Shown in pieces: positions 16,178 through 34,267 of a stretch of 60,642 nt of DNA. The notes beneath the pieces are model-generated. The model saw nothing but the letters and a program-made list of their open reading frames with translations, ran no database searches and was not told the DNA's origin. A program made the position numbers and the translations under genes. The stretch is taken from IMG/VR virus record IMGVR_UViG_2721755676_000007; one strand, written 5' to 3'. The stretch's first letter is position 1. The number at the start of each line of letters is the position of its first letter. This DNA comes from a virus (taxonomy: Duplodnaviria; Heunggongvirae; Uroviricota; Caudoviricetes).

Positions 16178-17203
16178 TTACGCCAGTTGTACGGACACGA
16201 ACTCATCAGGATCAGCCAGCAGCATCAGCGGTGCTGACTGAATCATGGTGAACTCTCGCGCCGGATCGCCGGATGTCTTCCAGTTTTTCGGATAACGGGG
16301 AGACGCATTAATACCCTCACTCAATGCGTCCGCATCCTGAATGCAGCCATAGGTGCGCAGACCGCGTGCCTGAGTGTTCCCCAGTACCATCGTGTTGTCC
16401 GGCAGGAAGTTCTTTTTGACGCCGTTTTCCACGTACTGTCCGGAATACACGACGATGGCCACATCGCCATACATCCCCTTATAGGACACCGCTTTACCCA
16501 GGTCTTTCACCGCTGTCTCCAGCTCGGAATGAGAGCCGCGACGGGTATCCAGCTTCTCCCTGACGGCTTTGAAGGAACGGAACAGCGCCCAGCCTTTCGG
16601 ATCAAACACGATGATATTCACCACGCCGCTGGCGTTCAGCGCGTAGGCTTCGATATCGTCGGTCGGGTCATACGTGGACTTGTCACGCTTGCTCCACTCC
16701 GTGCCGCCGGACTGCGTGATGTTGTTCGCCGCACTGCGGCCCATATCCACCTCAACCGGATCGAAGGCTTCACCGGTCATGGTGTATTTGCCCTTGAGCA
16801 CGGCAGAAACTGCCTGCATCTCTTCGACCTGAGCAATGGCCAGCTCTTCGTCACGCATGTTCTGCATGATGATGCGACGGCGGCGGTAAGCCGGGTCCGC
16901 CAGATTCTGCGGATCTTCATCCGGCAGGCGACGCAGGGTCATCTGCGGATTCACCTCATGCTTGGGTTTGACATATCCCGGCGTAAATTCAGAGGTGGAG
17001 CCGCCACGGGAACGGATAACCTCACCGGAAACAATCGGCGAAACGTACAGCGCCATGTTTACCAGTCCCGGAATTTGTGAGAGATAGACTTTCTCCGTAG
17101 TGAAGGGATAGCTCTCACGGAAAAAGAGACGCAGAAACAGCGGATCAAACTTAAATTTCTGCTCATTTGCCGCCAGCAGCTGGGCGGTTGTGTACATCGA
17201 CAT
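16178..17203 (-). CDS. E: Major capsid protein E
   Basis: Start at MSMYTTAQLLAANEQKFKFDPLFLRLFF gives 1026 nt as in lambda E. Confidence 0.93.
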   Translation of the reverse strand: MSMYTTAQLLAANEQKFKFDPLFLRLFFRESYPFTTEKVYLSQIPGLVNMALYVSPIVSGEVIRSRGGSTSEFTPGYVKPKHEVNPQMTLRRLPDEDPQNLADPAYRRRRIIMQNMRDEELAIAQVEEMQAVSAVLKGKYTMTGEAFDPVEVDMGRSAANNITQSGGTEWSKRDKSTYDPTDDIEAYALNASGVVNIIVFDPKGWALFRSFKAVREKLDTRRGSHSELETAVKDLGKAVSYKGMYGDVAIVVYSGQYVENGVKKNFLPDNTMVLGNTQARGLRTYGCIQDADALSEGINASPRYPKNWKTSGDPAREFTMIQSAPLMLLADPDEFVSVQLA

Positions 17204-17258
17204 AAAAAAATCCCGTAAAAAAAGCCGCACAGGCGGCCTTTAGTGATGAAGGGTAAAG

Positions 17259-17591
17259 TTAAACGATGCTGATTGCCGTTCCGGCAAACGCGGTCCGTTT
17301 TTTCGTCTCGTCGCTGGCAGCCTCCGGCCAGAGCACATCCTCATAACGGAACGTGCCGGACTTGTAGAACGTCAGTGTGGTGCTGGTCTGGTCAGCAGCA
17401 ACCGCCAGAATGCCAACGGCAGCACCGTCGGTGGTGCCATCCCACGCAACCAGCTTACGGGTGGAGGTGTCCAGCATCAGCGGGGTCATTGCAGGCGCTT
17501 TCGCACTCAATCCGCCGGGCGCGGTTGCGGTATGAGCCGGGTCACTATTGCCCAGCGGCTGGTAATGGGTAAAGGTTTCTTTGCTCGTCAT
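17259..17591 (-). CDS. D: Head decoration protein D
   Basis: Start at [12 protein letters not shown] gives 333 nt as in lambda D. Confidence 0.92.
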
Positions 17592-17600
17592 AAACATCCC

Positions 17601-18920: not shown

Positions 18921-19680
18921 TCTTCTCCTCCTCTGTTGATTGTCGCAGTCCGGATTCAAATGCCGCAGCCGCCCAGGCGGGCGGTTTAAGACCGGCTGCG
19001 CGGCGCTCCATCGTTTCACGGACCTGCTGGGCAAAAATTTCCTGATAGTCGTCACCGCGTTTCGCGCACTCTTTCTCGTAGGTGCTCAGTCCGGCTTCTA
19101 TCAGCATCACCGCTTCCTGAACTTCTTTCAGACCATCGATGGCCATACGACCGGAGCCTATCCAGTCGCAGTTCCCCCAGGCACTGCGGGCTTCCTGAAA
19201 ACTGAAGCGCGCTTTTGAAGGTAACGTCACCACGCGGCGAACGATGGCCTCTTCCAGCCAGCACAGAAACATCTGGCTCGCCTGACGGGATGCGACGAAT
19301 TTTCGCCGCCCCATAAAGTACGCCCACGACTCGTTCGCACTGGCCCGTGCCGTGGAGTAGCTCATCTGGGCGTAATTCCGGGAAAGCTGCTCATACGAGA
19401 CACCCAGCCCGGCAGCAATATACCGCAACAGTGACTGCTCAAATACGGAGTAGCCGTTATCCGTGTCCTGAGCCGTCTGCAGGTTCAGTGAGTCCCCCGG
19501 CATCAGGTGCGGCACTTTTGCGCCTCCCAGCCGGACCGGTGCTGCGGCGTAATACGCGGCAATTTCACCAATCCAGCCAGTCAGCCTTTCCCGCTGCTCC
19601 TGACTGTTCGCGCCCAGAATAAAATCCATCGCTGACTGCGTATCCAGCTCACTCTCAATGGTGGCGGCATACATCGCCTT
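18901..19680 (-). pseudogene. B: Portal protein B, C-terminal fragment (separated from its N-terminal part by the 10.9 kb insertion)
   Basis: Reads ...KA-MYAATIESELDTQSAMDFILGAN... to a C-terminus ending EEEKSDSRAA as in lambda B; upstream sequence beyond 19680 is unrelated. Confidence 0.9.
19673..19680. repeat. Left copy of the 8-bp junction direct repeat ATCGCCTT (att core or target duplication)
   Basis: Identical octamer at 30572-30579; both copies read K-A-(M/I) in the B frame. Confidence 0.85.
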
Positions 19681-19754
19681 TATGAAAAGACAGGAAAAAA
19701 TAAAATTTAAAAACAGTACATTACGAATGCTCAGACCTATCGTTTAAAGGAGTC

Positions 19755-19777
19755 GCAATACACACTGCAATACACGA
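19755..19777. repeat. Two direct copies of GCAATACAC(A/G) near the left end of the insert (candidate integrase arm sites)
   Basis: tcGCAATACACAcTGCAATACACGa; three copies of TGCAATACACA occur at the other end (30381-30434). Confidence 0.5.
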
Positions 19778-20107
19778 TTATTTATAAGATGAGCGGCATC
19801 CGTCATAAAGCTGGTGGATGCTTTTTCTATGCATATATGCACAGTTTTAGTGGGCGTTAATGTCGATATAGGGATCCCCATATCGAGATTGGATACCTGG
19901 CTTTTTTCCGGTTAACCTTTAATCAGGCTGGTGGGCTTTACCTGTTTTGTATGAGTGGTCATCATGACCATGTCATAACAAAAACCCCATATTCGTGGTT
20001 TTTCTGTGTCGGGCTATTCTGTCGTTGCTGTGCTGATTTGGCTGGTGGGCTGAATCATCATTACGGCGATGCAGCTATGTAGACGTTCCGGCCTCCTCAA
20101 ATTGAGG

Positions 20108-20245
20108 ATTGTGGAAGAATCAATGGGTTAGTCTTACTTTCCCGACATCCCCCAATGGGGGTTTTCGAAACAATCAATAGCTTAGGCTTACTTCCCCGAT
20201 TTCCTGCATTGCAGGTTTTCGAAATAATCAATGGGTTAGGCCATC
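20108..20245. repeat. 54-bp tandem repeat, about 2.5 copies, each unit containing a short hairpin palindrome
   Basis: AATCAATGGGTTAG / AATCAATAGCTTAG / AATCAATGGGTTAG at 20118, 20172, 20226; palindromes CCCCCAATGGGGG (20149-20161) and CCTGCATTGCAGG (20203-20215). Confidence 0.7.
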
Positions 20246-20489
20246 GTGCAATTTTGCACTTTGCCAGCCAGCGCAATGTCGCGTTATCAGTCCTCAGATG
20301 TGAGGGATGTAGCCAGCTTTTCCCCCAGTGGGGGATATCCAGCACCGACGGCTTAACTGTGCGTGCCAGCACAAGGTAGCCTTGAACTACTTACTGCATC
20401 CCATCTTACAGGCCGTGCCTTCCTGCTTAACTTTTTGCAATGCAACAAGTCAGCCAGCGCAATTTTGCGTTATCGGGAATATCAGCAAG

Positions 20490-20771
20490 TTACCGCCGCA
20501 ATCGTTCCGGCTTCTTCCACTGGTAAGTATTTTTCGCGCTCTCCCTCCGTTGTTGAGAACGGCGACGATATGCCAGCAACTCAAGGACTCTTGTTCGTAT
20601 GTTGCGCATATCCACGCCGTTAAGCTCAATACCGTCACGGCGCATCACCTCAGCCACTACACGCACATAATTATCTGCGGTCACGCTGTCCGGCTGCGTG
20701 GCCTGTTCGTCATGCTGCTTGCTGATTCCACAAGCACGGCGGATTAATCGCAGTATTTCGGATTCAGTCAT
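20490..20771 (-). CDS. Hypothetical protein (93 aa), satellite-encoded
   Basis: ORF downstream of the Nu1-like gene in the same orientation; no recognisable motif. Confidence 0.45.
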   Translation of the reverse strand: MTESEILRLIRRACGISKQHDEQATQPDSVTADNYVRVVAEVMRRDGIELNGVDMRNIRTRVLELLAYRRRSQQRRESAKNTYQWKKPERLRR

Positions 20772-20782
20772 AGCGTACTACG

Positions 20783-21337
20783 TTACTTATCTTTATTCGG
20801 CTGCAACTTATCCGGTACGTTTCCGGCAGTTTCCATCAGATAATCGGACAGCATCAGCGGTATGTTTTCGTCAAGTTTTGCGCATGCGTTACAGGCTCTG
20901 ATAACTTCTTTTTTCAGTCCATCCAGCATAGACGGCTTCATGTCGGGAAACTTCCTTGTCATGGCAAGCGGCAGGCTGTCCATGATTGAAGAAATCTGAC
21001 TCGCCAATTTTGAAAGCACGTATATACAAAACGCTGTATCAATAACGTCGCCGCGTTCGCGCTCGTTTTTAAGCTCCTGCGCCTCTGCCTGTGCTGTCAG
21101 CAATCTGATCCTGACTCGTAGAAGTTCATCATCATCAATCTCGCCTTTGTCGTCTGTAATCTGGTTAATTGCATTGCTAACCCGATTGTCTATTACGCTG
21201 GCAACATCATAAAACGCCTCGCGGCCTTTACGTTCAACGGGAGTCACTCCCCACTTGTCGAACGCTGTCGCACTTACACGGCAGCTTTGCGCCATGTTTT
21301 TTTTGTTCATCAGGTGCGATTTCATCAATATCCCCAC
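20783..21337 (-). CDS. Terminase small subunit homologue (Nu1-like), satellite-encoded
   Basis: C-terminal half aligns with lambda Nu1 (DTAFCIYVLSKLASQISSIMDSLPL vs ETAFCTFVLSRIAGEIASILDGIPL); sits about 120 bp downstream of the satellite cos; start may be the internal MNKKNM at 21310. Confidence 0.8.
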   Translation of the reverse strand: MGILMKSHLMNKKNMAQSCRVSATAFDKWGVTPVERKGREAFYDVASVIDNRVSNAINQITDDKGEIDDDELLRVRIRLLTAQAEAQELKNERERGDVIDTAFCIYVLSKLASQISSIMDSLPLAMTRKFPDMKPSMLDGLKKEVIRACNACAKLDENIPLMLSDYLMETAGNVPDKLQPNKDK

Positions 21338-21436
21338 TTAAGTAATGTTTCAGGTTGGTGTATTGGCTTTATCTTTTCCTTTTTATTCATAGAGATAGAG
21401 CGAACAACAAAACCACCACCAGCACCCGAAAAAGGC

Positions 21437-21502
21437 TCATAAATAGCGAAAACCCGCGAGGTCGCCGCCCCGTAGCCTACCGGATCACCGGAAAGGACCC
21501 GC
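21437..21502. other. Satellite cos site (cosN 12-mer at 21459-21470)
   Basis: 66-bp block with 4 mismatches to the prophage cos block at 34202-34267; contains the reverse complement of GGGCGGCGACCT; flanking cosB-side sequence differs. Confidence 0.8.
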
Positions 21503-21526
21503 CAGCCAGAGCGGGCCCTAATTTCA

Positions 21527-21910
21527 TCAACCAATCAGCTTATAGCGACCATCCCGTGCATTGCGGCGTACACGCTCAATCTTGAGGCATAGCGCCGCAT
21601 CTGGCTTTTTTGGGACAGGTACGCGGCAATATTCAGAAGCGCGAGGAATATTATTTATCCAGTCGATCACTTCACTTAAATACCAGGCCTTACGCCCTTC
21701 CGTAACCTGCACACGCTCCGGGAACTCTCCACTAGCCTCAAGGTTTAGCAGTGTACGACGACTCAGGGTTGTAATTTCCATCACCTGATTCATATCAACA
21801 AGGCGCTCGCTTAAACACATTTTGTCAGCGATAGCTTTTAATTCCTCTACAGCTGGATTCGGGTACATCATTTCGGCAATTGGCTTAAGGTCATTGTAAT
21901 CATTCTGCAT
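21527..21910 (-). CDS. AlpA-family HTH regulator (127 aa)
   Basis: C-terminal region ITTLSRRTLLNLEASGEFPERVQVTEGRKAWYLSEVIDWI resembles AlpA/excisionase-type HTH. Confidence 0.55.
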   Translation of the reverse strand: MQNDYNDLKPIAEMMYPNPAVEELKAIADKMCLSERLVDMNQVMEITTLSRRTLLNLEASGEFPERVQVTEGRKAWYLSEVIDWINNIPRASEYCRVPVPKKPDAALCLKIERVRRNARDGRYKLIG

Positions 21911-21921
21911 TGTATCCCCCT

Positions 21922-22263
21922 TTACACACGAGCCAGCGGCTGAACAGAAATACCTGAGCCAACAAACGCTGCAACCTTTACTGACAGTTCTTTAACAGAC
22001 TCAGGCCAGTTCAGAGCATCAACATTTAAGACACCTGTCTTATAGACCTGAGCCTGTGTTTTTTTCGCGGTGTCGATTTGTACAGCGGAAACATAAACCG
22101 CTTTACCTACGCTCGAACCATCCCATACCACCAGTGCACCTGTTGCATCTTCCTGCATCAGTGGCGTAAATGCAGGAATTACCCCTTTATTAGCTGAAAA
22201 TATCCCCAGCGTAGTCACCAGTGCTTCAGTGCCAGCCATGAGTTCAGTGTAATGAGTAGCCAT
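21922..22263 (-). CDS. Head decoration protein D paralogue, satellite-encoded
   Basis: 113 aa; aligns with lambda D over VWDGSSVGKAVYVSAV...YKTGVLNVDALNWPE vs [17 protein letters not shown]...[15 protein letters not shown]. Confidence 0.7.
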   Translation of the reverse strand: MATHYTELMAGTEALVTTLGIFSANKGVIPAFTPLMQEDATGALVVWDGSSVGKAVYVSAVQIDTAKKTQAQVYKTGVLNVDALNWPESVKELSVKVAAFVGSGISVQPLARV

Positions 22264-22272
22264 TGCTCCCCC

Positions 22273-23319
22273 TTAGCCAATGCGAACGGTAACAAAACGA
22301 TTGATGCGGGCCGGTATTGGCTGTGGTGCTGAATGTGTCTGCACATATTCAATAGCCGGATCACCAGGCACAATATAGTTTTTCGGTGCAAGTTCGGCTT
22401 TAGTCAGCCCCATTCGGATTAGCTCCGGATCCTGAATACCGCCATAGGCGACAATCCCCTGAAGAGCCGTATTGCCAAGCACCATCAAATCAGGATCAAG
22501 GAAATGTTTTTCTGTTCCGTCCTCGTCGGTATAACGCCCGCTGTAAACAACAATCGCAACATCGCCCATATACCCTTTAAAACTCACCGAATCACCAAGG
22601 TCTTTAAGGGCCGTTTCCAGTTCGGAATTAGAACCACGACGGGTATCCAAAGCCTCTTTTATCGCTCTGAATGAACGGTATTTCTTCCATACATTACCAC
22701 CCATAATGATGATATTAGTGACGCCCTCACTAAATTCTGCGTAGCTCTCAATATCATCATTTGGATCAAAAGTTTCTTTATCCTTACCTGACCACTCAGT
22801 ACCGCCAGACTGAGTGATGATATTTTGTGGTTTTATATTCCAGTCCAGCTCATAACGTTCAATACCATCGCCCTCAATGATATTTTTCCCCGTTGTGATT
22901 GCCTGAACAGCAAGCCATTCAATACGTGCACGAATAGCTTTAGCCTGATTTACAATCGCCTGTTTAACTTTAATATTACGCGCCCCAAAAGCATTGTATT
23001 GCTCAGGTGACACACCAGCAGGGCGCACAGCTAACTTATTTGGATCAATGCTGCTTTTCGGCTTCATATAACCTGGACGAATTGTTTTTGATTCGTATCC
23101 CTCATCTCGTGAAACTTTACTGCCCACCATAGGAGAGCAAAACGCCGCGATCGGGATATTTGGATCGTCGATCGTATCAAGAATAATGTCTCTCGATTCA
23201 AACATTACCGAGCGAGTGAAAAACAAACTGGTAAACAACGCATTTAATTTTTTTTGCACATCTTCAGCATTAGCCACCTGCACAAGCTGTGTAGGCGAAT
23301 ATAAATCAACCATACTCAT
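22273..23319 (-). CDS. Major capsid protein E paralogue, satellite-encoded
   Basis: 349 aa from MSMVDLYSPTQL; conserved blocks ITQSGGTEWSGKDKETFDPNDDIESYA and LDTRRGSNSELETALKDLGDSVSFKGYMGDVAIVVYSGRY match lambda E. Confidence 0.85.
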   Translation of the reverse strand: MSMVDLYSPTQLVQVANAEDVQKKLNALFTSLFFTRSVMFESRDIILDTIDDPNIPIAAFCSPMVGSKVSRDEGYESKTIRPGYMKPKSSIDPNKLAVRPAGVSPEQYNAFGARNIKVKQAIVNQAKAIRARIEWLAVQAITTGKNIIEGDGIERYELDWNIKPQNIITQSGGTEWSGKDKETFDPNDDIESYAEFSEGVTNIIIMGGNVWKKYRSFRAIKEALDTRRGSNSELETALKDLGDSVSFKGYMGDVAIVVYSGRYTDEDGTEKHFLDPDLMVLGNTALQGIVAYGGIQDPELIRMGLTKAELAPKNYIVPGDPAIEYVQTHSAPQPIPARINRFVTVRIG

Positions 23320-23530
23320 CCTCTTTACATTCATTACAAATAATTGTGAATATATTCTATTACCGATGTCTGCTATGCGAACACATGCAACCAAGTGCAA
23401 TGTTGTATAAAATATGCCGTAACAACTTCAGTGCTGATAATTCGTGTTAATGTATTTACTTCCTTTGGTCGGGATTTATGTAGCATGCCGGAAAATCTAT
23501 TTTTTTCCGGCATCTTTTTGTTTGCAGAAT

Positions 23531-23953
23531 TTAAAACGGTATATTATCGCCGTACGGATCATCATTCCCCGACTGTTGTTTTGCCCTGTTCAGTGCGTCA
23601 GTGGCCTGCCCCTGCTGGCCTTTTTTGCCGCCCGGTCGCGCCGTTCGCGCACTGATTACGCTGTCTGCGATAAGCTGCCAGCCCCGCCGCGTTTCGCCGT
23701 TCTGGCCTGTCCACTGGCTTACCTGCATGTTACCCGCCACGCTCACCAGTTCGCCTTTGTGGTGTTTTGCCAGTGCGTCGGCCTGTCTGCCAAACGCCAG
23801 GACGGATAACCACATCGTCGCCGTTCCGTCATCTGCCTGGCTGCACGGCAGGGGAACCGCCATACTCGCCATCGCCATTTGTGTCCCTTTGCTGGTGGTC
23901 TTTAACTGCGGGTCAGCCACCAGCCGCCCGTAAGCCGCTATCTGTGCTGTCAT
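23531..23953 (-). CDS. ssb: Single-stranded DNA-binding protein (SSB-like)
   Basis: 140 aa with OB-fold-like N-terminus, Gly/Gln-rich linker and acidic C-terminal tail ending DNIPF (SSB tip DDDIPF). Confidence 0.7.
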   Translation of the reverse strand: MTAQIAAYGRLVADPQLKTTSKGTQMAMASMAVPLPCSQADDGTATMWLSVLAFGRQADALAKHHKGELVSVAGNMQVSQWTGQNGETRRGWQLIADSVISARTARPGGKKGQQGQATDALNRAKQQSGNDDPYGDNIPF

Positions 23954-24264
23954 GCTGTCTGCTCTCCGGTTTTAACATTGATGGTTGTCACCTGTTCCGC
24001 TTCGGCAATCTCCCGTTCTGTCAGCGTGGCAAAGTTTGCCGCTGCTGTGGTCATAAATGCGCTTATCAGGTCGGGATGTTCCTTCGCGTATCCTGCCCGT
24101 GTGTGGTGGTCTATCGCTTTGATTGCCACCTTTAAGGAAAGCTCTGTCATGTCTAACGCTTTATATTTTGCCTGTGTTCTGTCTCTGCGAATTTTGGTCA
24201 TTTGTCGCCCCTGATTCATGTTTTCGGCTGGCATGTTTGTTAAGTGATTTTTATGTATGCGCAT
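23950..24264 (-). CDS. Hypothetical protein (104 aa)
   Basis: ORF coupled to ssb (ATGA overlap), immediately downstream of the iteron region. Confidence 0.45.
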   Translation of the reverse strand: MRIHKNHLTNMPAENMNQGRQMTKIRRDRTQAKYKALDMTELSLKVAIKAIDHHTRAGYAKEHPDLISAFMTTAAANFATLTEREIAEAEQVTTINVKTGEQTA

Positions 24265-24315
24265 TTATTTTCACCCCCCCTCGTTTAAAAAGTTTTTAGT
24301 TGTGCCTCCCCCCCC

Positions 24316-24537
24316 TCTACCCATCTACCCGAATGCTCATCATGTCAGTAATGGCGCCGCTTTCAGCGGGTAGATAGCTTTTTTGACTCCTCTACCTGCC
24401 GTCTACCCTGCTACCTGAAACTGATAAAATCAGGTAGAAGAGGTAGAGAGCTTTTATTAGCCTTCTACCTAGCCCTATACCCACTTATCATGTTGAATAA
24501 TATGCGTTTATTTCGTTCAGGTAGATGGGGTAGATGG
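24316..24537. repeat. Iteron array (GGTAGA / TCTACC repeats), candidate satellite replication origin
   Basis: At least 12 copies of the hexamer in both orientations immediately downstream of the primase gene. Confidence 0.7.
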
Positions 24538-24550
24538 CTTTTACAAAAAA

Positions 24551-26305
24551 TTATAAAAACGCGTCGCAATCGTCTGTTGTAATTGCGTTGGTCTGCGTTA
24601 CTCCCTTAACTTTTCGCGTAATATATTCATGCCCGTAAACTTTCGCCGCTGGCTTCATGGCCTTGCTGAACTCAGCCACGTTTAGCGGTTTGCTCCTGCC
24701 CGCGTATGCCATAAACGCCAGATAGACGCGGTAAAGGCTGTTCCTGGTCGTGTACTTCACTGAATCACCACCGCCACCCATCATCAGGCCGCGCGCTTCC
24801 TCCAGAAAATTCAGGAACTGGCAAAACTCAATAACCGGATCCGTCTGTTGCTTTATTGCCAGTGCTTCATCACCGTCACGCTGTTCCAGTAGTAAAGCCC
24901 GTGCCTTCTCAGGGTCGGTAAAGTTCGCCAGCAATCGGCGGATAATAACGGGGATTTCAGCCGCAATCTTTTCCGGTAGCTCCCTGTCTTTTTCGGCCTC
25001 ACTGACGATATTGTCGAAACGGAAAATCACGCGACGACGTGCCACACCTCCGGCCCGTTCGGTGAATATCATCGGGTTGTTGTTGGTCGCCAGCACCACC
25101 GCCCTGATTACCGCCGTGAAACGCTTTTCATATTTCGGGTTAATTTCCACGGGGTCGCCGCCTGTGATTTTCTTGATGCCCGTTCCTTCGCCTGTATATT
25201 TCGGCTGGTCAGCCAGGACGATAAGACGACTCCCGACAACCTGCGCACGTCCACCAGCATCATCAAGCGATGTCATTTCAGCGCTTACCGTGTTCTGTTT
25301 CCCTGCCAGAAGGCTGGCTATGTGTGTGAATGTACTTTTACCGCTCCCGCCGTCTCCGGTGGCCTCAATAAACATCTGCCAGTCGTACCGGTTCGCCATA
25401 ATCATGTACAGCGCGGCACATATACGCATCATCTTGCGCGGGTCTTTTCCGGCTGCGTGCTCAAGCCATTTATGAAAGTTTGGCGCGTTATCGCGGATGT
25501 TCTCCCCTGGTGCTGGTGGCGTGTACTCAATGCCGTTGTGCGTGGTGATCCAGTTCTCCGGCGTGTGCGGGGAAAATTCCCCCGTTTTCAGGTCAAGCGC
25601 ACCATTGGCGAACGGCAGCAAATCGCCAGACGGCTCGCCCATTGGTTCGGCAATAACTTTTAACGCTTCCACGGCGTTATTGATTACGCGCTTGCTGAAA
25701 GTGGCCCTGTGCTCTGAATAGATCGCCACCATTTCGCGGCTAAGTTCCATTGTGCTGACCGGACACCATACCCCGCCGCGCCATACGTGAACGATTTCAC
25801 TTTCAGGATGTACGCAAACGCCATCAAAGCGATCGGCAAGCAACTGCGCGCGCTCACTGTCCGCCATCTGCGAAAGTTGCGCCTTTTGCTTTACCGGAAG
25901 CTCAATGACCAGACCATCAGAAAGATTCTGGCGTTCACGGGCCAGATATTCGCGCCAGTTCTGCACCTCCTGGCCGTGCATACCCTCAGGATAAAAATTT
26001 GCATCCTGTACGCCTGCTGCCGCCAGCTTCTGACCAATCGCCTTTATCATTACAGGCGCAAGATATCCGGCCCTGTATATGCGTGCTGATTTTCGGCCTT
26101 CCGGCACAATTTGCAGATTATCCAGTTCGGATAGCTGCTGCTCCCCAAGCCACACAGGAGGCTCATTATCTCCGGCCATACGCGCATCATGTTCCTGCCA
26201 TTGTTTCGCGTGTGCCCAGGCATCACTACCCGCAAAAATAATTACTTCTGTTCCTTTGTGTTTTATGCCGCGTGACTGCTGTTTTACGTTCGGTGCCAGT
26301 TTCAT
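24551..26305 (-). CDS. P4 alpha-like primase/helicase (D5 family, Walker A GDGGSGKST)
   Basis: 584-aa ORF with P-loop NTPase core and phage/plasmid primase C-terminal-type architecture. Confidence 0.8.
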   Translation of the reverse strand: MKLAPNVKQQSRGIKHKGTEVIIFAGSDAWAHAKQWQEHDARMAGDNEPPVWLGEQQLSELDNLQIVPEGRKSARIYRAGYLAPVMIKAIGQKLAAAGVQDANFYPEGMHGQEVQNWREYLARERQNLSDGLVIELPVKQKAQLSQMADSERAQLLADRFDGVCVHPESEIVHVWRGGVWCPVSTMELSREMVAIYSEHRATFSKRVINNAVEALKVIAEPMGEPSGDLLPFANGALDLKTGEFSPHTPENWITTHNGIEYTPPAPGENIRDNAPNFHKWLEHAAGKDPRKMMRICAALYMIMANRYDWQMFIEATGDGGSGKSTFTHIASLLAGKQNTVSAEMTSLDDAGGRAQVVGSRLIVLADQPKYTGEGTGIKKITGGDPVEINPKYEKRFTAVIRAVVLATNNNPMIFTERAGGVARRRVIFRFDNIVSEAEKDRELPEKIAAEIPVIIRRLLANFTDPEKARALLLEQRDGDEALAIKQQTDPVIEFCQFLNFLEEARGLMMGGGGDSVKYTTRNSLYRVYLAFMAYAGRSKPLNVAEFSKAMKPAAKVYGHEYITRKVKGVTQTNAITTDDCDAFL

Positions 26306-26601
26306 TTTTTACCTCTGAATCCGTTAATCATGGTTTTCATTTTCTGGATATTTCCCCACGCTTTTTCCCTGCTGATGGGCTTACTGCGGGGTGCGGCATA
26401 TACCAGGGAAAAATCACGCCGGAACTGATAAACAGGCATCACGCAGTCATAGCTATACCCCTCACGGCGGTAAGTGATGCGCCGTTCTGCCACGCCTTTA
26501 ATCGTTACCGTGCCGCCGTATTTATCGCGGTAAATATCGCCGTTCATAAATTCAGGTCGAGCGGGGCCGCTGGCAATAAAGCCAGAATTTTTCATTTCCA
26601 T
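26302..26601 (-). CDS. Hypothetical protein (99 aa)
   Basis: ORF coupled to the primase start (overlap at 26302-26305). Confidence 0.45.
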   Translation of the reverse strand: MEMKNSGFIASGPARPEFMNGDIYRDKYGGTVTIKGVAERRITYRREGYSYDCVMPVYQFRRDFSLVYAAPRSKPISREKAWGNIQKMKTMINGFRGKK

Positions 26602-26618
26602 ATTATTTATTCCTCGAC

Positions 26619-26840
26619 TTAACTCGACTTATTTGATAGCAGGGCACTATTTATTGCGTCATTGAGTTTTTCTGCTGATTCATCAATAAGTGACAACAGG
26701 CCATAAGCAATATTTGCATCTTCATTGTCATTTATGCAATCAAGCCACATATTTAATATTGCTTTTGCTGAATTATTTAAAGTTAATGAACTTTCTGCAC
26801 ATGCTAACAATTTAAAAAAGACTTCCCGTTCTGTATTCAT
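26619..26840 (-). CDS. Hypothetical protein (73 aa)
   Basis: Small ORF in the same operon orientation. Confidence 0.4.
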   Translation of the reverse strand: MNTEREVFFKLLACAESSLTLNNSAKAILNMWLDCINDNEDANIAYGLLSLIDESAEKLNDAINSALLSNKSS

Positions 26841-27032
26841 TTAATCCCCCACCAGCTTACTTTCTTCCTCAATCAAAAAACTAGCGACACTTCCCGAAAG
26901 ACGCGCCAGTAGGCTCGCCAGTGCGGATATATCAGCATCTGTAATTTTGTTCGGGTATACCTCAAGAAGGCGGCAAATAATTTCTGTCTGGTGCGCACGT
27001 TCAGCGGCTTCGTGTAATGTAATTTCCTGCAT
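26841..27032 (-). CDS. Hypothetical protein (63 aa)
   Basis: Stop/start overlap with the next ORF at 27032. Confidence 0.4.
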   Translation of the reverse strand: MQEITLHEAAERAHQTEIICRLLEVYPNKITDADISALASLLARLSGSVASFLIEEESKLVGD

Positions 27033-27217
27033 TAATGCACCTCTTTTAATTCATACACTGCTGAAATAATGACTTGTGATAAGCCATATTCTGATGATTC
27101 GCTTCTCACCGCAGCAATAGCCGTCTGAACATTAACAGCCTTCACATTCTGAGCGATACCAATTGTGTGGCCTATTGGGTTAACAGCTCGGGCAAATACA
27201 CGGAAGGTTTTAAGCAT
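27032..27217 (-). CDS. Hypothetical protein (61 aa)
   Basis: ATG preceded by GGGAG-type Shine-Dalgarno; first gene of the leftward operon. Confidence 0.45.
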   Translation of the reverse strand: MLKTFRVFARAVNPIGHTIGIAQNVKAVNVQTAIAAVRSESSEYGLSQVIISAVYELKEVH

Positions 27218-27597
27218 GACTCACTCCCTGGCGGATTTTTGCAGCGAATACAGCAACACAACCGGACGGGCAACGGCTACGCGCTTCGCGTTCCGTCCAG
27301 GCGGTTACGTGGATGATTTGAGATTCTCCGGCACTCAGTGCCAGAAAACGCCACACAAAGGCCGTTTGTGTGTGTACAAGGTGTGGTATATGATTTACAG
27401 CAACCATAACGGCTCCTAGTTTACGTTGTTGGTTAGACGCCCCGTATGTGTTCCCAGCACTGCGGGGCGTTGCTCTTTGTATTTCAACAATCCTTTCGGT
27501 GTGTTTCATGTTATGAGCGCATGAAACACACGTCAAGGCTTTTTGTATTTCTTTTTTTGTGTATACTGAAACACACCGATGATTAGGAGTTTCAGAA

Positions 27598-27903
27598 ATG
27601 GCAACGGCTAACAAAAACGCAAAATCACAACTGACAACTGTCAGAGTCCCACTAGATGTTATGCAAGGGATGGAATCCGTTAAGCTGGACGGTGAAAGCA
27701 ATGCCGGATTTATCGTAACCGCCATGCGCGGAGAAATAGCCCGCCGCCAAGCAGAAGGCAGCGGAGAAAATCCCCTTGTGTCGTCACTGGATGCCCTGGC
27801 TAAGGTCGAACAAATCGGCATCAAAGCAGCCGAGGAGATCGGGCAACTCGTCACCGTCGCGCGTGAAGAACTCCAGCGACGCAAGGTCAAAGAGCATGAA
27901 TAG
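27598..27903 (+). CDS. Small DNA-binding-like protein (possible ribbon-helix-helix), the only plus-strand gene in the satellite
   Basis: 101 aa; AGGAG 8 nt upstream of ATG; divergent from the small-ORF/primase operon across 27218-27597. Confidence 0.5.
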   Translation: MATANKNAKSQLTTVRVPLDVMQGMESVKLDGESNAGFIVTAMRGEIARRQAEGSGENPLVSSLDALAKVEQIGIKAAEEIGQLVTVAREELQRRKVKEHE

Positions 27904-28236
27904 CCAATATCAGCGCCATAGTTTGAGGAACGCAGGCGCATTGCTTTACAGGACAGCACCATGAGCGACACAGAATCAACCAAAACACCATCACCAACTC
28001 GTAAGAGACGACGCAAAAATATAGCGCATGAACATGAATCAGAAAGATTCGCACCTTGTTCGTTTGCTCTTGAGAAATTCCTTAAAGAGCACAGGAAAAA
28101 GCTCTCGTTGCAAACCTTGGAACGAACCAAATCTGGCTGATCACATTGCCCACCAGCCGCAAATGTGGCATTGTTGGTGATGCTTTTGTTTTCCCTTGTT
28201 CCCACTGGCGACCCTTTTGCGGTCGCCTTTGTTTTG

Positions 28237-28560
28237 TCACTGAATGCGGTTACCAAAGTAAAACTCAGGCTGATATTCACGTATCAGCGTTTTTTCTTCT
28301 TCCTCCAGCTCACGCTTTTTGCGCTTACATGCCTGTAGCTCCCTCCCCTTCTCGCTGGCACTTATTTGATATTGCTCTTTACGGCGGGAAAAATCCTGTA
28401 ATGCACCCCACGGGATACCATAAGTCCCCGTTTTTCTGATACCTGGTATCACATTTCTGAATACCCAGTTACTGAAACGATGAGCAAATGTGCCAGGCGT
28501 CGTTGCTTTGCGGCTGCGGGCTATTAGTTTGTAGAAACCTGACTCAGAGATAATTCTCAT
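28237..28560 (-). CDS. Bro-N domain protein, C-terminal part (split ORF)
   Basis: SESGFYKLIARSRKATTPGTFAHRFSNWVFRNVIPGIRKTGTYG is the second half of a Bro-N domain. Confidence 0.6.
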   Translation of the reverse strand: MRIISESGFYKLIARSRKATTPGTFAHRFSNWVFRNVIPGIRKTGTYGIPWGALQDFSRRKEQYQISASEKGRELQACKRKKRELEEEEKTLIREYQPEFYFGNRIQ

Positions 28561-28814
28561 ATTCTGATTTCCTCCTGGGTGTAAGTTAAATTTACTCCCT
28601 TTTCATCATCATCAAGCATCTGCAACGCCGTACGCGAATTGGTTAGTTCCAGCGCAGCACAAACATCTTTTGCAACAAACCACGGATCGCCGTTCAGATA
28701 CACCACACGAACGTTCACACTATCAAAGCGCAGAACGACGAGATCACGAATATCGCAGAATTTTTTCACTGGACGAGCGTACCCCTTGCCCGTCACGGCA
28801 ATATTTTTATTCAT
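28557..28814 (-). CDS. Bro-N domain protein, N-terminal part (split ORF)
   Basis: DPWFVAKDVCAALELTNSRTALQMLDDDEKG is the first half of a Bro-N domain; ends GGAGGAAATCAGAATATGA overlapping the next start. Confidence 0.6.
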   Translation of the reverse strand: MNKNIAVTGKGYARPVKKFCDIRDLVVLRFDSVNVRVVYLNGDPWFVAKDVCAALELTNSRTALQMLDDDEKGVNLTYTQEEIRI

Positions 28815-28870
28815 CGCGTTTTTACCTTATAGACAAAAAACCCCTCGTGATGAGGGGCATTATTTACTGG

Positions 28871-29128
28871 TTATTGCTGTTTTGTTTTTCCAGGTTTCCA
28901 TCCAGGATGCCACTCACCACGGATCCATGCCTGAACCTCTGAAAGTCGATACCCTGCAGCACGTTCACCGATCTTGATACGTCGCGGGAATTTACCTGCC
29001 TGCTCCATTTTCCAGCGTGTTGAGTTTGCCAGCGTGGTAAGTGCTATGCACTCTTTTTCACGAATGAACCGATCAATGTCCTTCATTGTGCGCAAATCGT
29101 TTTCATCAACAAGAGAATAAATTGCCAT
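28871..29128 (-). CDS. alpA: AlpA-family transcriptional regulator / excisionase-like
   Basis: 85 aa directly downstream of the integrase, typical P4/CP4-57-type int-alpA pair. Confidence 0.7.
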   Translation of the reverse strand: MAIYSLVDENDLRTMKDIDRFIREKECIALTTLANSTRWKMEQAGKFPRRIKIGERAAGYRLSEVQAWIRGEWHPGWKPGKTKQQ

Positions 29129-29129
29129 A

Positions 29130-30371
29130 TCACACCACCTCTTTATTAAGCTCGATAACGTTGTTGTTAAATCCTGCTATCGTATTAAGGTAATTAACCC
29201 ACATATTAAGCACCTCAAGTTTTTTCTTTATATGCCTGCTTTTATTGTAAACACCAGCAACCCCTTTCACTTTATGACCTAAAAGAAGTTCGACAATATA
29301 AGGATCCGCCCCCATATCATTAAGCGTAGTGGAAAATGTGCGCCTGAAATCATGTATGCACCACAAGCCATTAGTATCATGACCAAGACGCCTGCATATT
29401 CTGTTTGCAGCCCCTGTTATTGTCGCCCTTTGCAAAGCACAACCGACAACATAACCGCGATTTTTTGTTTCTGCGTAAAGATTAACGATCCATTGTTTTA
29501 TTCCGTCAGGAACAGGCCTTACTATAGCCTCCTTGTTTTTGCTGTGCTCTTTTGGGACTGTCCATACCCAGTTTTTTAAATCCCATTCGTCCCAGGTGGA
29601 TAGCCTCGCCTCCTGCTGTCGGCAACCAAACACCAGGCAGATAACCATTATTCTTCGGTTATATATTGATGACAGAGTTAGCAAATTATTACCGTAAGCA
29701 TAAGACCATACATCAGCGGTTTCATTGATATTAAGAACGCGATCCCTTATACCGGATGAGCGCCCGACATAACTTACGTTAATATCTCCAAAGGGATCGC
29801 ACGCGATGTATTGCCTGACGCGACAAAAACGCAACGCCTGTTTGATATCAAGAAAAATTGCACCAGACATAACAGGCGCATTTTTTTTGATCCTGTCAAA
29901 GACGGTAAGCCATGTGTGTAATTTGCACTGTTCTATAGCCATATCACCGATATAGGGGAAGATATGCTTTTCAAATCGTTTTATTAAATATTCATGCTCT
30001 TTTCTGGCTGTTGTGGCGTGATTGTCGTACCAGTAAAACAGCGCATCCCTTACGGTCACTGGTTGCATAGTTTTTTCGGCAGCAAGTTTTATTTGCCTGC
30101 GGGGGTCCAGATTTTCAGCCAGCCATTCACGGCACTGATCACGCATGCGCCTGGCCGTTGCAAGAGACATGTCAGGATAGCGACCAAGTGTAAGCCATAC
30201 CGGAGGGGATTCCCTGCCACCAAGACGATAGTAAAAAACAAAGCTGATCCCCCCAACCATGCTTACACGCACAGACAACCCGCGCCCATCCGCTATTGTT
30301 TTTTGTTTGTCCTGCCGTTTTCCGACAAGACTCTTTAACAGTTTGTCACTGAGTTTGTTTTCAATAGCCAT
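29130..30371 (-). CDS. int: Tyrosine integrase, P4-type
   Basis: 413 aa; N-terminal GRGLSVRV...GGISFVFYYRLGGR arm-binding-type domain; C-terminal HDFRRT...LLGH...Y catalytic signature. Confidence 0.88.
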   Translation of the reverse strand: MAIENKLSDKLLKSLVGKRQDKQKTIADGRGLSVRVSMVGGISFVFYYRLGGRESPPVWLTLGRYPDMSLATARRMRDQCREWLAENLDPRRQIKLAAEKTMQPVTVRDALFYWYDNHATTARKEHEYLIKRFEKHIFPYIGDMAIEQCKLHTWLTVFDRIKKNAPVMSGAIFLDIKQALRFCRVRQYIACDPFGDINVSYVGRSSGIRDRVLNINETADVWSYAYGNNLLTLSSIYNRRIMVICLVFGCRQQEARLSTWDEWDLKNWVWTVPKEHSKNKEAIVRPVPDGIKQWIVNLYAETKNRGYVVGCALQRATITGAANRICRRLGHDTNGLWCIHDFRRTFSTTLNDMGADPYIVELLLGHKVKGVAGVYNKSRHIKKKLEVLNMWVNYLNTIAGFNNNVIELNKEVV

Positions 30372-30380
30372 TAAAAGCCC

Positions 30381-30434
30381 TCAAGAGATTTGCAATACAC
30401 ACCCATCCCGATCGCCAATTTGCAATACACATTG
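30381..30434. repeat. Three direct copies of TGCAATACACA upstream of the satellite integrase (candidate arm-type sites)
   Basis: Copies at 30381, 30411 and 30424; same motif twice at the opposite end of the insert. Confidence 0.55.
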
Positions 30435-30571
30435 CAATACACAAAACCGCGAAAAACTGGAAGGGTGATGAACGGTCATCAAAAGCATGGAAAACGACAT
30501 TCCAGACGCAGCAAGGGTTTCAGTGGAGTTGGCGAACGATGCGGGCAACTACGGTGAGATGATAGACATAA

Positions 30572-33500
<2,929 letters not shown>

Positions 33501-33526
<26 letters not shown>

Positions 33527-34046
33527 TCAGCAACCCCGGTATCAGTTCATCCAGCGCGGCTGCTTTGTTCATGGCTTTGATGATATCCCGTTTCAGGAAA
33601 TCAACATGTCGGTTTTCCAGTTCCGGAAAACGCCGCTGCACCGACAGGGGGATCCCGTCGAGAATACTGGCAATTTCACCTGCGATCCGCGACAGCACGA
33701 AAGTACAGAATGCGGTTTCCACCACTTCAGCGGAGTCTCTGGCATTCTTCAGTTCCTGTGCGTCGGCCTGCGCACGCGTAAGTCGATGGCGTTCGTACTC
33801 AATAGTCCCTGGCTGGAGATCTGCCTCGCTGGCCTGCCGCAGTTCTTCAACCTCCCGGCGCAGCTTTTCGTTCTCAATTTCAGCATCCCTTTCGGCATAC
33901 CATTTTATAACGGCGGCAGAGTCATAAAGCACCTCATTACCCTTGCCACCGCCTCGCAGAACGGGCATTCCCTGTTCCTGCCAGTTCTGAATGGTACGGA
34001 TACTCGCACCGAAAATGTCAGCCAGCTGCTTTTTGTTGACTTCCAT
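33501..34046 (-). CDS. Nu1: Terminase small subunit Nu1
   Basis: 181-aa ORF MEVNKKQLADIFGASIRTIQNWQEQGMPVLRGG matching lambda Nu1. Confidence 0.93.
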
Positions 34047-34201
34047 TGTTCATTCCACGGCCAAAAACAGAGAAAGGAAACGACAGAGGCCCAAAAGTTC
34101 GTTTTCAGCACCTGTCGTTTCCTTTCTTTTCAGGGGGTATTTTAAATAAAAACATTAAGTTACGACGAAGAAGAACGGAAACGCCTTAAACCGGAAAATT
34201 T

Positions 34202-34267
34202 TCATAAATAGCGAAAACCCGCGAGGTCGCCGCCCCGTAACCTGTCGGATCGCCGGAAAGGACCCGC
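34202..34267. other. Prophage cos site (cosN 12-mer at 34224-34235; lambda genome ends)
   Basis: Contains reverse complement of GGGCGGCGACCTCGCGGGTTTTCGCTATTTATGAAAATTTTCC and of the lambda right end ...CGACAGGTTACG. Confidence 0.9.

Follow-up and report, generated by a model that had tools for sequence, protein, structure and literature searches.

A Nu1-family small terminase gene beside its own cos site in a helper-embedded PICI of a lambda-like prophage

The satellite and its helper

The window analysed here is a 60,642-nucleotide stretch of a Caudoviricetes record (IMGVR_UViG_2721755676_000007) in which a satellite sits in portal gene B of a lambda-like prophage, in the same orientation as B. 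The whole satellite (19668..30579, minus strand, about 10.9 kb) is bounded by att cores, AAGGCGATGTATG at 19668-19680 and AAGGCGATTTATG at 30567-30579, and the portal fragments correspond to positions 814-854 and 70-826 of an uninterrupted portal gene, overlapping by 13 bp. All of its genes are on the minus strand: an integrase (29130-30371), AlpA, BRO, an Icd-like gene, a D5_N/DUF5906 primase (24551-26305), SSB, a gpE-like major capsid gene (22273-23313; PF03864, E 3.8e-41), a gpD-like head decoration gene (21922-22263; PF02924, E 4.5e-15), an AlpA-family HTH gene directly upstream of cos (21527..21910; PF05930, E 7.6e-9; PHROG 2790, E 1e-49) and a small terminase (TerS) gene. Downstream of TerS lies a conserved 93-aa ORF (20490..20771, minus strand; PHROG 1561, E 1.2e-55), which is also found downstream of rppA in EcCICFT073.

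Gram-negative PICIs were recognised by an integrase, AlpA, a primase-replicase and a capsid-like late zone, with no tail or lysis genes, in a unidirectional element of about 10-20 kb, and helper-embedded PICIs (HE-PICIs) additionally by co-oriented insertion in a lambdoid late gene. With this gene set on one strand, a length of 10.9 kb and a portal gene split at a 13-bp core, the element is, judged by its gene content and layout, a helper-embedded PICI. This configuration has already been published (PMC10111431), and the HE-PICIs described there (Tommasini, Mageeney & Williams 2023) have the same integrase-AlpA-Bro-primase-late-zone order, co-oriented in a lambda late gene, with B among the targets. 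The model element of that study, 11capE, has no terS and presumably relies on helper cos machinery, whereas the element here carries a Nu1-family terS, as do sister HE-PICIs in gene E (L008-L011 and L069).

In the helper packaging region (31601..34235, minus strand), cosN (34224-34235) is followed by a lambda-type cosB with R3, R2 and R1, then by Nu1 (33501-34046) and the large terminase gpA/TerL (31601-33526, 641 aa). As the preliminary description had stated, no large terminase is encoded in the satellite, there being no TerL-sized ORF between the att cores. Phages with the same type of DNA-binding domain (DBD) have an ORF of 649-656 aa directly downstream of TerS; here the TerL gene that follows Nu1-type genes is replaced by the 93-aa ORF and then the att site, an absence which, on gene order, separates the satellite TerS from the phage version. 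The late module (MCP-Dec-HTH-cos-TerS-93aa) keeps the same order at five different integration sites, and in none of the satellite contexts examined at those sites does a TerL follow TerS.

A Nu1-family protein with an N15-type DNA-binding domain

The longest ORF at the locus (20783-21337, minus strand) opens with a GTG at 21337 and encodes 184 aa. RefSeq places the start at the ATG at 21325, giving 180 aa (WP_000835282.1, "terminase small subunit"). I adopt this start, and hence the coordinates 20783..21325 (minus strand), because the N-terminus M-x-x-H-L-[LM]-N-K-K is kept in homologues, including those of phages. Formal profile searches were significant: PF07471 (Phage_Nu1) scored 85.7 bits against a Pfam cut-off of 30 bits (E 3.5e-24, residues 70-152 only), and PHROG 57, "terminase small subunit", covered residues 1-176 (E 5.2e-51). 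With the helper Nu1 of the same window, BLASTP aligned the entire protein at 37% identity (E 4e-36). NCBIfam yielded no family for either the satellite TerS or the helper Nu1, and searching PDB sequences with the satellite protein gave no meaningful match. The proposal that this ORF is a Nu1-type TerS encoded by the satellite is thus confirmed at the level of homology.

The protein comprises an N15-type winged helix-turn-helix (wHTH) DBD at residues ~1-60, a helical linker and core, a variable C-terminal region (131-167) and a 13-residue tail. Its closest phage relative, in a tblastn search of the phage collection, is N15 gp1 (47.6% identity overall, 56% in the DBD), which lacks that tail and is followed by a TerL gene. 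Identity to the helper Nu1 varies by part: the DBD shares 35-37%, the core 50% and the final 37 residues 41%, residues 97-130 of the core being the closest of all to the helper protein. In core and C-terminus the satellite TerS is an outgroup to N15 and lambda, with 41-56% identity to them versus 78-91% between those two.

The preliminary description, which had singled out an N-terminal peptide (MNKKNMAQSCRVSATAFDKWGVTPVERKG, residues 6-34), considered the DNA-binding region divergent. It does differ from the helper's, with 35% identity to Nu1, but it is not a novel region, a possibility I reject: it is a wHTH that by sequence belongs to the N15 packaging-specificity group. The recognition helix VSATAFDKWGV is identical to N15's ISVQAFDKWGV at 8 of 11 positions, the motif AFDKWGV being shared, and it keeps N15's Val in place of lambda Glu24, the criterion taken from PMC4669245. 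N15 gp1 and the satellite TerS also have the same two deletions relative to lambda Nu1, with loss of the GGGKG wing loop.

Structure prediction of the protein alone was informative only for this domain. The full-length AlphaFold (AF2) model had low confidence (pLDDT 64.5) and matched only weak MerR-type wHTH proteins in Foldseek, so it was set aside in favour of a DBD-only model (pLDDT 78.3), which has a wHTH topology (beta-alpha1-alpha2-beta-beta-alpha3). Its top PDB fold match is the lambda-like TerS DBD 7lwr_A (prob 1.00, TM 0.59/0.71, rmsd 2.0 A), and 6hn7_B, 7lxs_A, 7lw0_A and 1j9i are within its top 21. The Foldseek E-values for the DBD model are weak (at least 0.045, and above 1e-3 throughout for both models) because the domain is small.

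It had also been proposed that the C-terminal half is conserved with Nu1. Homology does extend over the full length, and the C-terminal region aligns gap-free to Nu1 residues 145-181, but at 41% identity; N15 and lambda, known to be cross-compatible, are 78% identical in those last 37 aligned residues. Within the satellite TerS family no other part varies as much or is as mosaic (DBD 80% conserved, C-terminus 50%), so the claim was overstated. By homology, the satellite TerS would bind helper gpA through this region. Counting against such recruitment are the 41% identity and the behaviour of two helper-embedded pairs, in which the helper gpA N-termini are identical and the satellite TerS C-termini only 70% identical, so that no co-variation between TerS C-terminus and gpA is visible (n=2). 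The satellite TerS, C-terminal region included, is under purifying selection, with dN/dS of ~0.2 in every domain and 0.09-0.26 over the Nu1-type C-terminal region.

The satellite cos site

The gene adjoins the satellite's own cos in a lambda-like geometry, as had been described, with the ATG at cos bp 146; the corresponding start codon lies at bp 190 for the helper Nu1 and at bp 89 for N15 gene 1. The satellite cosN, GGGCGGCGACCT (21459..21470, minus strand), is lambda-type, and together with the helper's is one of only two such sites in the window. The cosQ GGGTCCT (21494..21500, minus strand) is kept in all nine aligned satellites. Satellite and helper cos are identical through cosQ, cosN and 34 bp counted from the first cohesive-end base, and diverge beyond. 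A model of shared cosN is weakened by the sister satellite L069, whose cosN differs at 5 of 12 positions from that of its embedding helper.

Beyond the point of divergence the satellite cosB contains no lambda R sites and no strict IHF consensus. Nine satellites from four genera (E. coli, unassigned Enterobacteriaceae, Kosakonia and Superficieibacter) were aligned, and the longest invariant stretch downstream of cosN is GGTGGTGGT-K-TTGTT-x-TT. This invariant block, TGGTGGTGGTKTTGTTGTT, resembles the mapped R3 site of N15 (GAGGTTGTTGTT, bp 48-59), and it makes TGGTGGTGGTTTTGTTGTT (21403..21421, minus strand; cos bp 50-68) a candidate R3. The block is absent from the helper cosB and is invariant among the nine satellites, whose TerS proteins share 57-100% identity. 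N15 cosB is likewise devoid of lambda R sites, with a G/T-rich GGT..GTTGTT element in the neighbourhood of bp 50-68, and scrambling GTTGTT in N15 R3 lowered yield ~100-fold (PMC4669245). The cosB core of EcCICFT073, by comparison, is ACCACCACC at bp 55-63, against GGTGGTGGT...GTTGTT in the satellites.

The satellite block differs from N15 R3 in being preceded by (GGT)n and in lying 3-9 bp further from cosN. Its GTTGTT core is placed at cos bp 57, 60 or 63 across the satellites, versus bp 54 in N15, and length polymorphism of (GGT)n moves it by 6 bp between satellites with identical TerS. Lambda is harmed by displacements beyond 1-2 bp (PMC4669245), and the variable register counts against an R3-like role. 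The block is thus a relative of N15 R3 whose core, with a register that follows (GGT)n, falls within bp 57-68, the N15 site being at bp 48-59.

A candidate second TerS site, R2-like and inverted, lies about 50 bp away at cos bp 106-120 (CAATACACCAACCTG, 21351..21365). Its reverse complement, AGGTTGGTGTAT, matches N15 R3 (AGGTTGTTGTTT) at 10 of 12 positions, and the block is invariant or near-invariant in the nine satellites with diverging flanks. Because the N15-R3 pattern (at most two mismatches) is not enriched across the window, with 10 found versus 5.7 expected, it is conservation that makes this inverted site a candidate. N15 instead has a remote rR2 inside gene 1; no such rR2-like site was found within the satellite TerS gene.

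Internal repeats in the cos-TerS region are limited to short pairs, as chance predicts, and promoter and terminator scans of 20300-22000 yielded nothing. Read from the sequence, a candidate 21-codon uORF, MNKKEKIKPIHQPETLLKWGY (21325..21390, minus strand), lies inside cosB; its TGA overlaps the TerS ATG (TGATG), which suggests possible translational coupling. A similar uORF with a TAATG overlap occurs in L004/L070-type satellites and is absent from the Enterobacteriaceae L008 type.

Packaging specificity and its alternatives

Homology, domain architecture, cos anatomy, conservation, purifying selection and distribution were computed here; DNA binding to the R3-like block, recruitment of TerL and dependence of transfer on the TerS gene are what I infer. 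The reading to which I lean, and which I regard as probable, though far from certain, is that the satellite TerS is a functional cos-type small terminase and forms, with the adjacent cos, a private packaging specificity that uses the helper TerL. Once the helper is induced and the satellite has excised and replicated, the satellite late module would supply TerS, whose N15-type wHTH would bind the R3-like block of the satellite cosB, perhaps along with the inverted R-like block further on. Its C-terminal region would recruit helper gpA, which would nick the satellite's helper-identical cosN, with termination later at cosQ/cosN. The helper Nu1 would be unable to use the satellite cosB and, the satellite having no TerL of its own, packaging would depend on satellite TerS and helper TerL.

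The same architecture exists in lambda N15hy4, a lambda-N15 hybrid (Feiss et al.) that serves as an N15-specific helper and whose TerS anchors lambda TerL (PMC4669245, PMC9026076); it packages DNA with lambda cosQ/cosN and cosB-N15 using lambda TerL. Lambda-specific terminase packages such cosQ-lambda/cosN-lambda/cosB-N15 DNA at ~5e-4, versus 2.5 with N15 specificity (PMC4669245). The proposed strategy would also be the cos-phage counterpart of that of the SaPIs, in which a satellite-supplied TerS-S likewise partners the helper TerL and recognises satellite DNA only (Ubeda 2007). SaPIs are headful/pac elements with an unrelated TerS family, and they require a separate Ppi protein against phage TerS; the satellite here is cos-type and Nu1-family, with cosN/cosQ in common with its helper.

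Within the PICIs themselves, the satellite TerS may be an alternative to Rpp (RppA/B/C; PMC6739421). The same position in related PICIs holds either one or the other (MCP-Dec-small ORF-cos-[Rpp or TerS]-93aa), and EcCICFT073-type and satellite-TerS PICIs belong to the same family and even use the same chromosomal att site by phoQ. Rpp PICIs share a helper-like cosQ/cosN, a private cosB and a wHTH DBD of TerS ancestry. That the satellite TerS is itself an Rpp protein can be rejected: BLASTP gave no alignment with EcCICFT073 RppA, the PDB sequence search did not match Rpp chains, and the satellite protein has 180 aa with the full Nu1 C-terminal half, whereas Rpp proteins have 139-154 aa and no TerL-binding region (PMC9026076), lack the Nu1 core and need the helper TerS as a bridge. 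A match of the RppA N-terminus to PHROG 57 at positions 12-52 (E 3.9e-8) does indicate that the two share DBD ancestry.

The satellite TerS might nonetheless work in the manner of Rpp, forming hetero-oligomers with helper Nu1, either at the interface where DBDs dimerise or via the conserved oligomerisation region in the middle of the protein, so that Nu1 bridges to gpA, the mixed complex is redirected to the satellite cosB and helper-cosB recognition is poisoned. The gene stands exactly where PICIs of the EcCICFT073 type, integrated at the same chromosomal site, have rppA, heterodimers of Rpp with TerS are established (PMC6739421), and the common DBD ancestry and the similarity of core 97-130 to helper Nu1 fit as well. 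I consider this unlikely, for the satellite TerS, unlike Rpp, keeps the whole Nu1 C-terminal region under the constraint noted above, and it resembles RppA only in the profile-level DBD match (hhalign of the satellite TerS family profile against RppA, E 0.17, not significant). It is more doubtful still that the protein is an interference-only decoy, which would depress helper yield by titrating gpA or binding helper cos and have little role in satellite packaging, the latter proceeding via shared cosN/cosQ and residual helper terminase activity. Helper interference is typical of PICIs (PMC6092414, PMC6739421), EcCICFT073 cos plasmids without Rpp are still transferred at reduced levels (PMC6739421), and N15-specific terminase can also package lambda DNA (PMC4669245), so the DBD might bind helper R3. 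However, strict conservation of a matched R3-like block beside the gene across genera is hard to explain without a role at the satellite cos, and packaging of cosB-N15-type DNA by lambda terminase on its own reaches only ~1e-4 (PMC4669245).

Finally, the late zones of PICIs reportedly pick up clusters of helper late genes (PMC10111431), and TerS could be a passive relic taken from a phage along with cos and now functionless in the satellite. This reading is disfavoured and I give it very little credence: hundreds of genomes carry the ORF intact, at the low dN/dS given above, and the gene is not near any phage TerS in the collection, is never accompanied by TerL, and has a DBD co-conserved with the cosB block.

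The idea of packaging by a satellite TerS is not new, this being a known and common kind of element with an already annotated gene. Homologues of terS in PICIs had been remarked on by 2018 (PMC6092414), and terS has been counted among the core components of PICIs, "responsible for redirecting the packaging" (PMC10085698); neither Nu1 nor terS appears in the supplements of that paper or of PMC10111431. Should retargeting of gpA need nothing but the satellite TerS, cos-type PICIs hold two interchangeable solutions at one locus, full TerS or Rpp, and the evolution of Rpp and of the TerS-TerL interface would be open to direct tests. Embedded satellite-helper pairs offer cognate partners that occur in nature, the 19-bp conserved block gives a concrete candidate for the binding site, and the N15-type DBD links the system to existing lambda/N15 packaging genetics. 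The satellite cos and TerS could also serve as an orthogonal pair for lambda-based packaging.

Coverage of the cos+TerS segment reaches 80% or more in 761 of 5426 complete E. coli genomes (~14%), where RefSeq already labels the gene "terminase small subunit", and at this frequency the module probably contributes to satellite-mediated gene transfer. A broader joint reading is tentative and rather doubtful: that cos PICIs of the TerS type follow a distinct piracy strategy, numerically dominant in E. coli, in which a private N15-like TerS/cosB pair makes the helper TerS dispensable and only the helper TerL is needed; that Rpp is a derived satellite TerS minus the TerL-binding half; and that the mosaic C-terminus is swapped to follow different helper TerLs. 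Under the same reading, while the satellite is embedded, its additional cos, which has the helper cos's orientation and lies 12.8 kb from it, might allow the satellite TerS to initiate packaging within the unexcised composite. A scan of genome contigs returned mostly lambda-type Nu1, with only two further satellite-type loci. The contig matches also included lambda DNA contamination in unrelated assemblies.

A satellite within the helper portal gene

The window matches E. coli strain 210205630 (NZ_CP015912) at 100% identity and carries a lambda-like prophage on the minus strand, with tail and head genes from position 1 to ~19.7 kb and W, A and Nu1 at 31.4-34.0 kb. A 10.9-kb insert interrupts the portal gene B. 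The portal fragments correspond to positions 814-854 and 70-826 on the intact gene, and their overlap is a 13-bp core, AAGGCGAT[T/G]TATG, found at 19668-19680 and 30567-30579. These are the att cores flanking the satellite, and the helper portal protein is unavailable until the satellite excises.

On its minus strand the insert encodes an integrase, AlpA, BRO-N, an Icd-like protein, a D5_N/DUF5906 primase, an SSB, a gpE-like capsid protein and a gpD-like decoration protein (21922-23313), a second AlpA-like HTH protein, the small terminase (TerS) in question and a 93-aa ORF. It is a PICI of the helper-embedded kind (HE-PICI) described by Tommasini et al. (PMC10111431), who list gene B among the late genes targeted; the embedded arrangement is already in print, and their model HE-PICI is described without terS. 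The BRO-N gene (approximately 28237-28815; L002:11638-12215) is frameshifted according to RefSeq for strain 210205630; sister satellites, L001 among them, have it intact. The gpE-like and gpD-like genes coexist with the helper's own E and D (16178-17597), and their homologues in the PICI EcCICFT073 are reported to be dispensable for interference. Between the 93-aa ORF and attR lies a 54-bp tandem repeat (20118-20241, 2.3 copies, 80% match), and an exact match to the IHF consensus (AATCAATGGGTTA / AATCAATAGCTTA) stands at the start of each unit. The repeat may supply arm sites for recombination or IHF sites, or it may be what has been described for HE-PICI attP as a "doubled DNA motif". The prophage early region carries an IS10-type insertion (42763-44033) with RNA-OUT (42763-42832; Rfam RF00240, 99.5 bits) and a 402-aa transposase ORF (42825-44033).

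A Nu1-family small terminase and its cos

The longest TerS ORF spans 20783-21337, and RefSeq, which names the gene "terminase small subunit", places the start at 21325 to give 180 aa. The preliminary description regarded this protein as a homologue of lambda Nu1 and proposed a profile search, which supports it: PHROG 57 ("terminase small subunit") matches residues 1-176 (E 5.2e-51) and Pfam Phage_Nu1 only residues 70-152 (E 3.5e-24), while BLASTP aligns the protein end to end with helper Nu1 (33501-34046) at 37% identity (E 4e-36). The gene also lies beside its own cos, as had been claimed, with lambda cosN (GGGCGGCGACCT) at 21459-21470, cosQ (GGGTCCT) at 21494-21500 and the TerS ATG at cos bp 146; the corresponding starts are at bp 190 (helper Nu1) and bp 89 (N15 gene 1). 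I found no TerL-sized ORF in the insert, again in agreement with the earlier reading; the feature is real and had been read correctly in outline.

The nearest phage protein is N15 gp1, the TerS of phage N15 (47.6% identity). In the N-terminal DNA-binding domain (DBD, residues 1-55) the satellite protein shares 56% with N15 but only 35% with helper Nu1 (37% in an alternative alignment), and N15 shares 31% with helper Nu1. Because of these domain-wise identities, the N-terminus, described earlier simply as divergent, is assigned to the N15 type. The recognition helices read VSATAFDKWGV in the satellite and ISVQAFDKWGV in N15, and, compared with lambda, both proteins lack the same two stretches, one of them the GGGKG wing loop. 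An AlphaFold model of the DBD alone has wHTH topology (pLDDT 78); its top PDB match is the lambda-like TerS DBD 7lwr_A (TM 0.59/0.71, rmsd 2.0 Å), and 6hn7_B (lambda TerS as it occurs in the Rpp complex), 7lxs, 7lw0 and 1j9i are among the other matches. The E-values are weak, the domain being small, and the full-length model is poor. In the C-terminal half, described earlier as conserved with lambda, the core (97-130) is 50% identical to helper Nu1 and 56% to N15, and the last 37 aligned residues are 41% identical to each. N15 and helper Nu1 share 91% and 78% over the same segments. The C-terminal half is a separate deep Nu1-family lineage and not a recent helper copy.

The only other cosN copy in the window is the helper's (34224-34235). 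Starting at the first cohesive-end base, the two cos sites agree fully up to and including bp 34 and are unrelated further on; helper cosB contains the lambda R3, R2 and R1 elements and satellite cosB contains none. I aligned cosB from nine satellites (E. coli, unassigned Enterobacteriaceae, Kosakonia and Superficieibacter). Invariant or conserved are cosQ, the flank CGCTATTTATGAG, the invariant block GGTGGTGGT-K-TTGTT-x-TT (21403-21421, bp 50-68) and a downstream block, CAATACACC[A/C]AC[C/T]TG (21351-21365, bp 106-120), whose reverse complement AGGTTGGTGTAT matches N15 R3 at 10/12 positions. Across the nine, cosN varies whereas the invariant cosB block does not. N15 R3 was mapped at bp 48-59 (GAGGTTGTTGTT), and scrambling its GTTGTT lowered yield about 100-fold (PMC4669245). 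The satellites have this GTTGTT core at bp 57, 60 or 63 instead of bp 54. The N15-R3 pattern is not enriched across the whole window, and satellite cosB has no strict IHF consensus.

A (GGT)n length polymorphism directly upstream of the conserved TTTGTTGTT moves the GTTGTT core 6 bp between sister satellites encoding an identical TerS (P0075; L004:8860-8900 versus L005:8860-8900), which is odd in view of the cosN-R3 spacing sensitivity of lambda. A uORF of 21 codons (21325-21390, minus strand) lies inside cosB, its stop overlapping the TerS start (TGATG); a homologue with a TAATG overlap occurs in the L004, L005 and L070 satellites, though not in the Enterobacteriaceae type. In the Rpp-type cosB of EcCICFT073 cos1 (L012:2555-2640), ACCACCACC at bp 55-63 is the exact reverse complement of GGTGGTGGT at bp 51-59 of the TerS-type cosB, and according to Murialdo & Feiss this stretch is identical in four PICIs.

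How the satellite might be packaged

In lambda-N15 genetics, DNA with lambda cosQ and cosN joined to cosB-N15 was packaged at ~5e-4 when the terminase was lambda-specific and at 2.5 when it was N15-specific; the N15-specific helper was a hybrid of lambda and N15, with TerS(N15hy4) as the anchor for lambda TerL (PMC4669245). The satellite has the natural counterpart: cosQ and cosN of the helper type, a cosB resembling that of N15, and a TerS whose DBD is N15-type. As these genetics fit the anatomy closely, I consider it probable that satellite TerS binds satellite cosB and recruits helper gpA (31601-33526); such recruitment would leave the satellite dependent only on helper TerL, capsid and tail proteins. 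TerL binding is the weak link, given a C-terminus only 41% identical to Nu1. In two embedded pairs the helper gpA N-termini are identical and the satellite TerS C-termini only 70% identical, so that no co-variation is visible between them; both variants may be compatible.

Alternatively, the protein could act as an Rpp-like heteromer that still requires helper Nu1, which seems unlikely but has two points in its favour, a common locus and a common DBD ancestry. At phoQ, rppA of EcCICFT073 (144 aa) occupies the exact place of TerS in sisters L004-L007, and the two genes are therefore positional alternatives. RppA and satellite TerS have no pairwise similarity; the RppA N-terminus matches PHROG 57 at positions 12-52 (E 3.9e-8), consistent with the published structural likeness of Rpp and TerS DBDs (PMC6739421). 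A decoy serving interference only is more doubtful still, and a relic is the least credible, being disfavoured by selection and conservation. Comparison of the window gene with four E. coli homologues gives a dN/dS of 0.18-0.21 over its whole length and <0.3 in every domain, and conservation within the family is 80% in the DBD and 50% (minimum 22%) in the C-terminus. In the C-terminal segment dN and dS both jump (dS 1.8-2.6 versus 0.13-0.25 in the DBD; L070, L004), which points to replacement by recombination rather than decay.

In the unexcised composite the two cos sites are co-oriented and 12.8 kb apart, and packaging begun at the satellite site would traverse the head and tail genes of the helper on its way towards the next helper cos. 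The cosN of L069, an HE-PICI in capsid gene E (L069:2490-2520, L071:15712-16100), is GGGCGTCAGGCG and differs at 5/12 positions from that of its embedding helper (GGGCGGCGACCT), whose gpA N-terminus is identical to that of the window helper; L069 may be packaged by a helper other than the prophage that embeds it.

Novelty, family and prevalence

The feature is a PICI small terminase of the cos/Nu1 type with predicted N15-like specificity. Satellite-encoded TerS is established in pac-type SaPIs, a terS homologue was noted in some Gram-negative PICIs (Fillol-Salom et al., 2018; PMC6092414), and SatelliteFinder counts the small terminase among the core components of PICIs, as "responsible for redirecting the packaging" (PMC10085698). 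Reviews of piracy strategies cover helper-cos carriage, SaPI TerS with Ppi, and Rpp, and omit a cos-type Nu1-family satellite TerS. In the literature searched I found no published test of the protein, nor its assignment to the N15 specificity type, the conserved block as a candidate binding site, the allelic relationship between terS and rppA or the prevalence in E. coli genomes; all four add detail to a known type of feature and do not define a new one. Specialists would not find the feature surprising.

A large protein database holds 188 homologues, including a group of 180 aa in E. coli and Shigella (72-99% identity) and one of 169-170 aa in Citrobacter and Enterobacter (about 60%). The late module has one order in all contexts examined (gpE-like, gpD-like, small HTH or 137-aa ORF, cos, TerS, 93-aa ORF), lies at the PICI 3' end and is followed by TerL in none of them. 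Five integration sites are represented: beside phoQ, at tRNA-Ile, close to narP, and in capsid gene E and portal gene B. In phages from Glaciecola and Thalassotalea whose TerS has this type of DBD, an ORF of 649-656 aa follows TerS immediately. By megablast (>= 80% covered), 761 of 5426 complete E. coli genomes contain the cos+TerS segment and 97 the cos1+rppA segment, a count that leaves out divergent RppC types.

Lambda-type Nu1 also appeared on short contigs from assemblies of unrelated organisms, among them Kitasatospora, Paenibacillus, Bradyrhizobium, Oceanobacillus and Shewanella (L023-L030, L032, L040, L064), with a tblastn score equal to that of lambda-type Nu1 from E. coli (38% against the query, residues 6-167); these most likely reflect contamination of the assemblies with lambda DNA.
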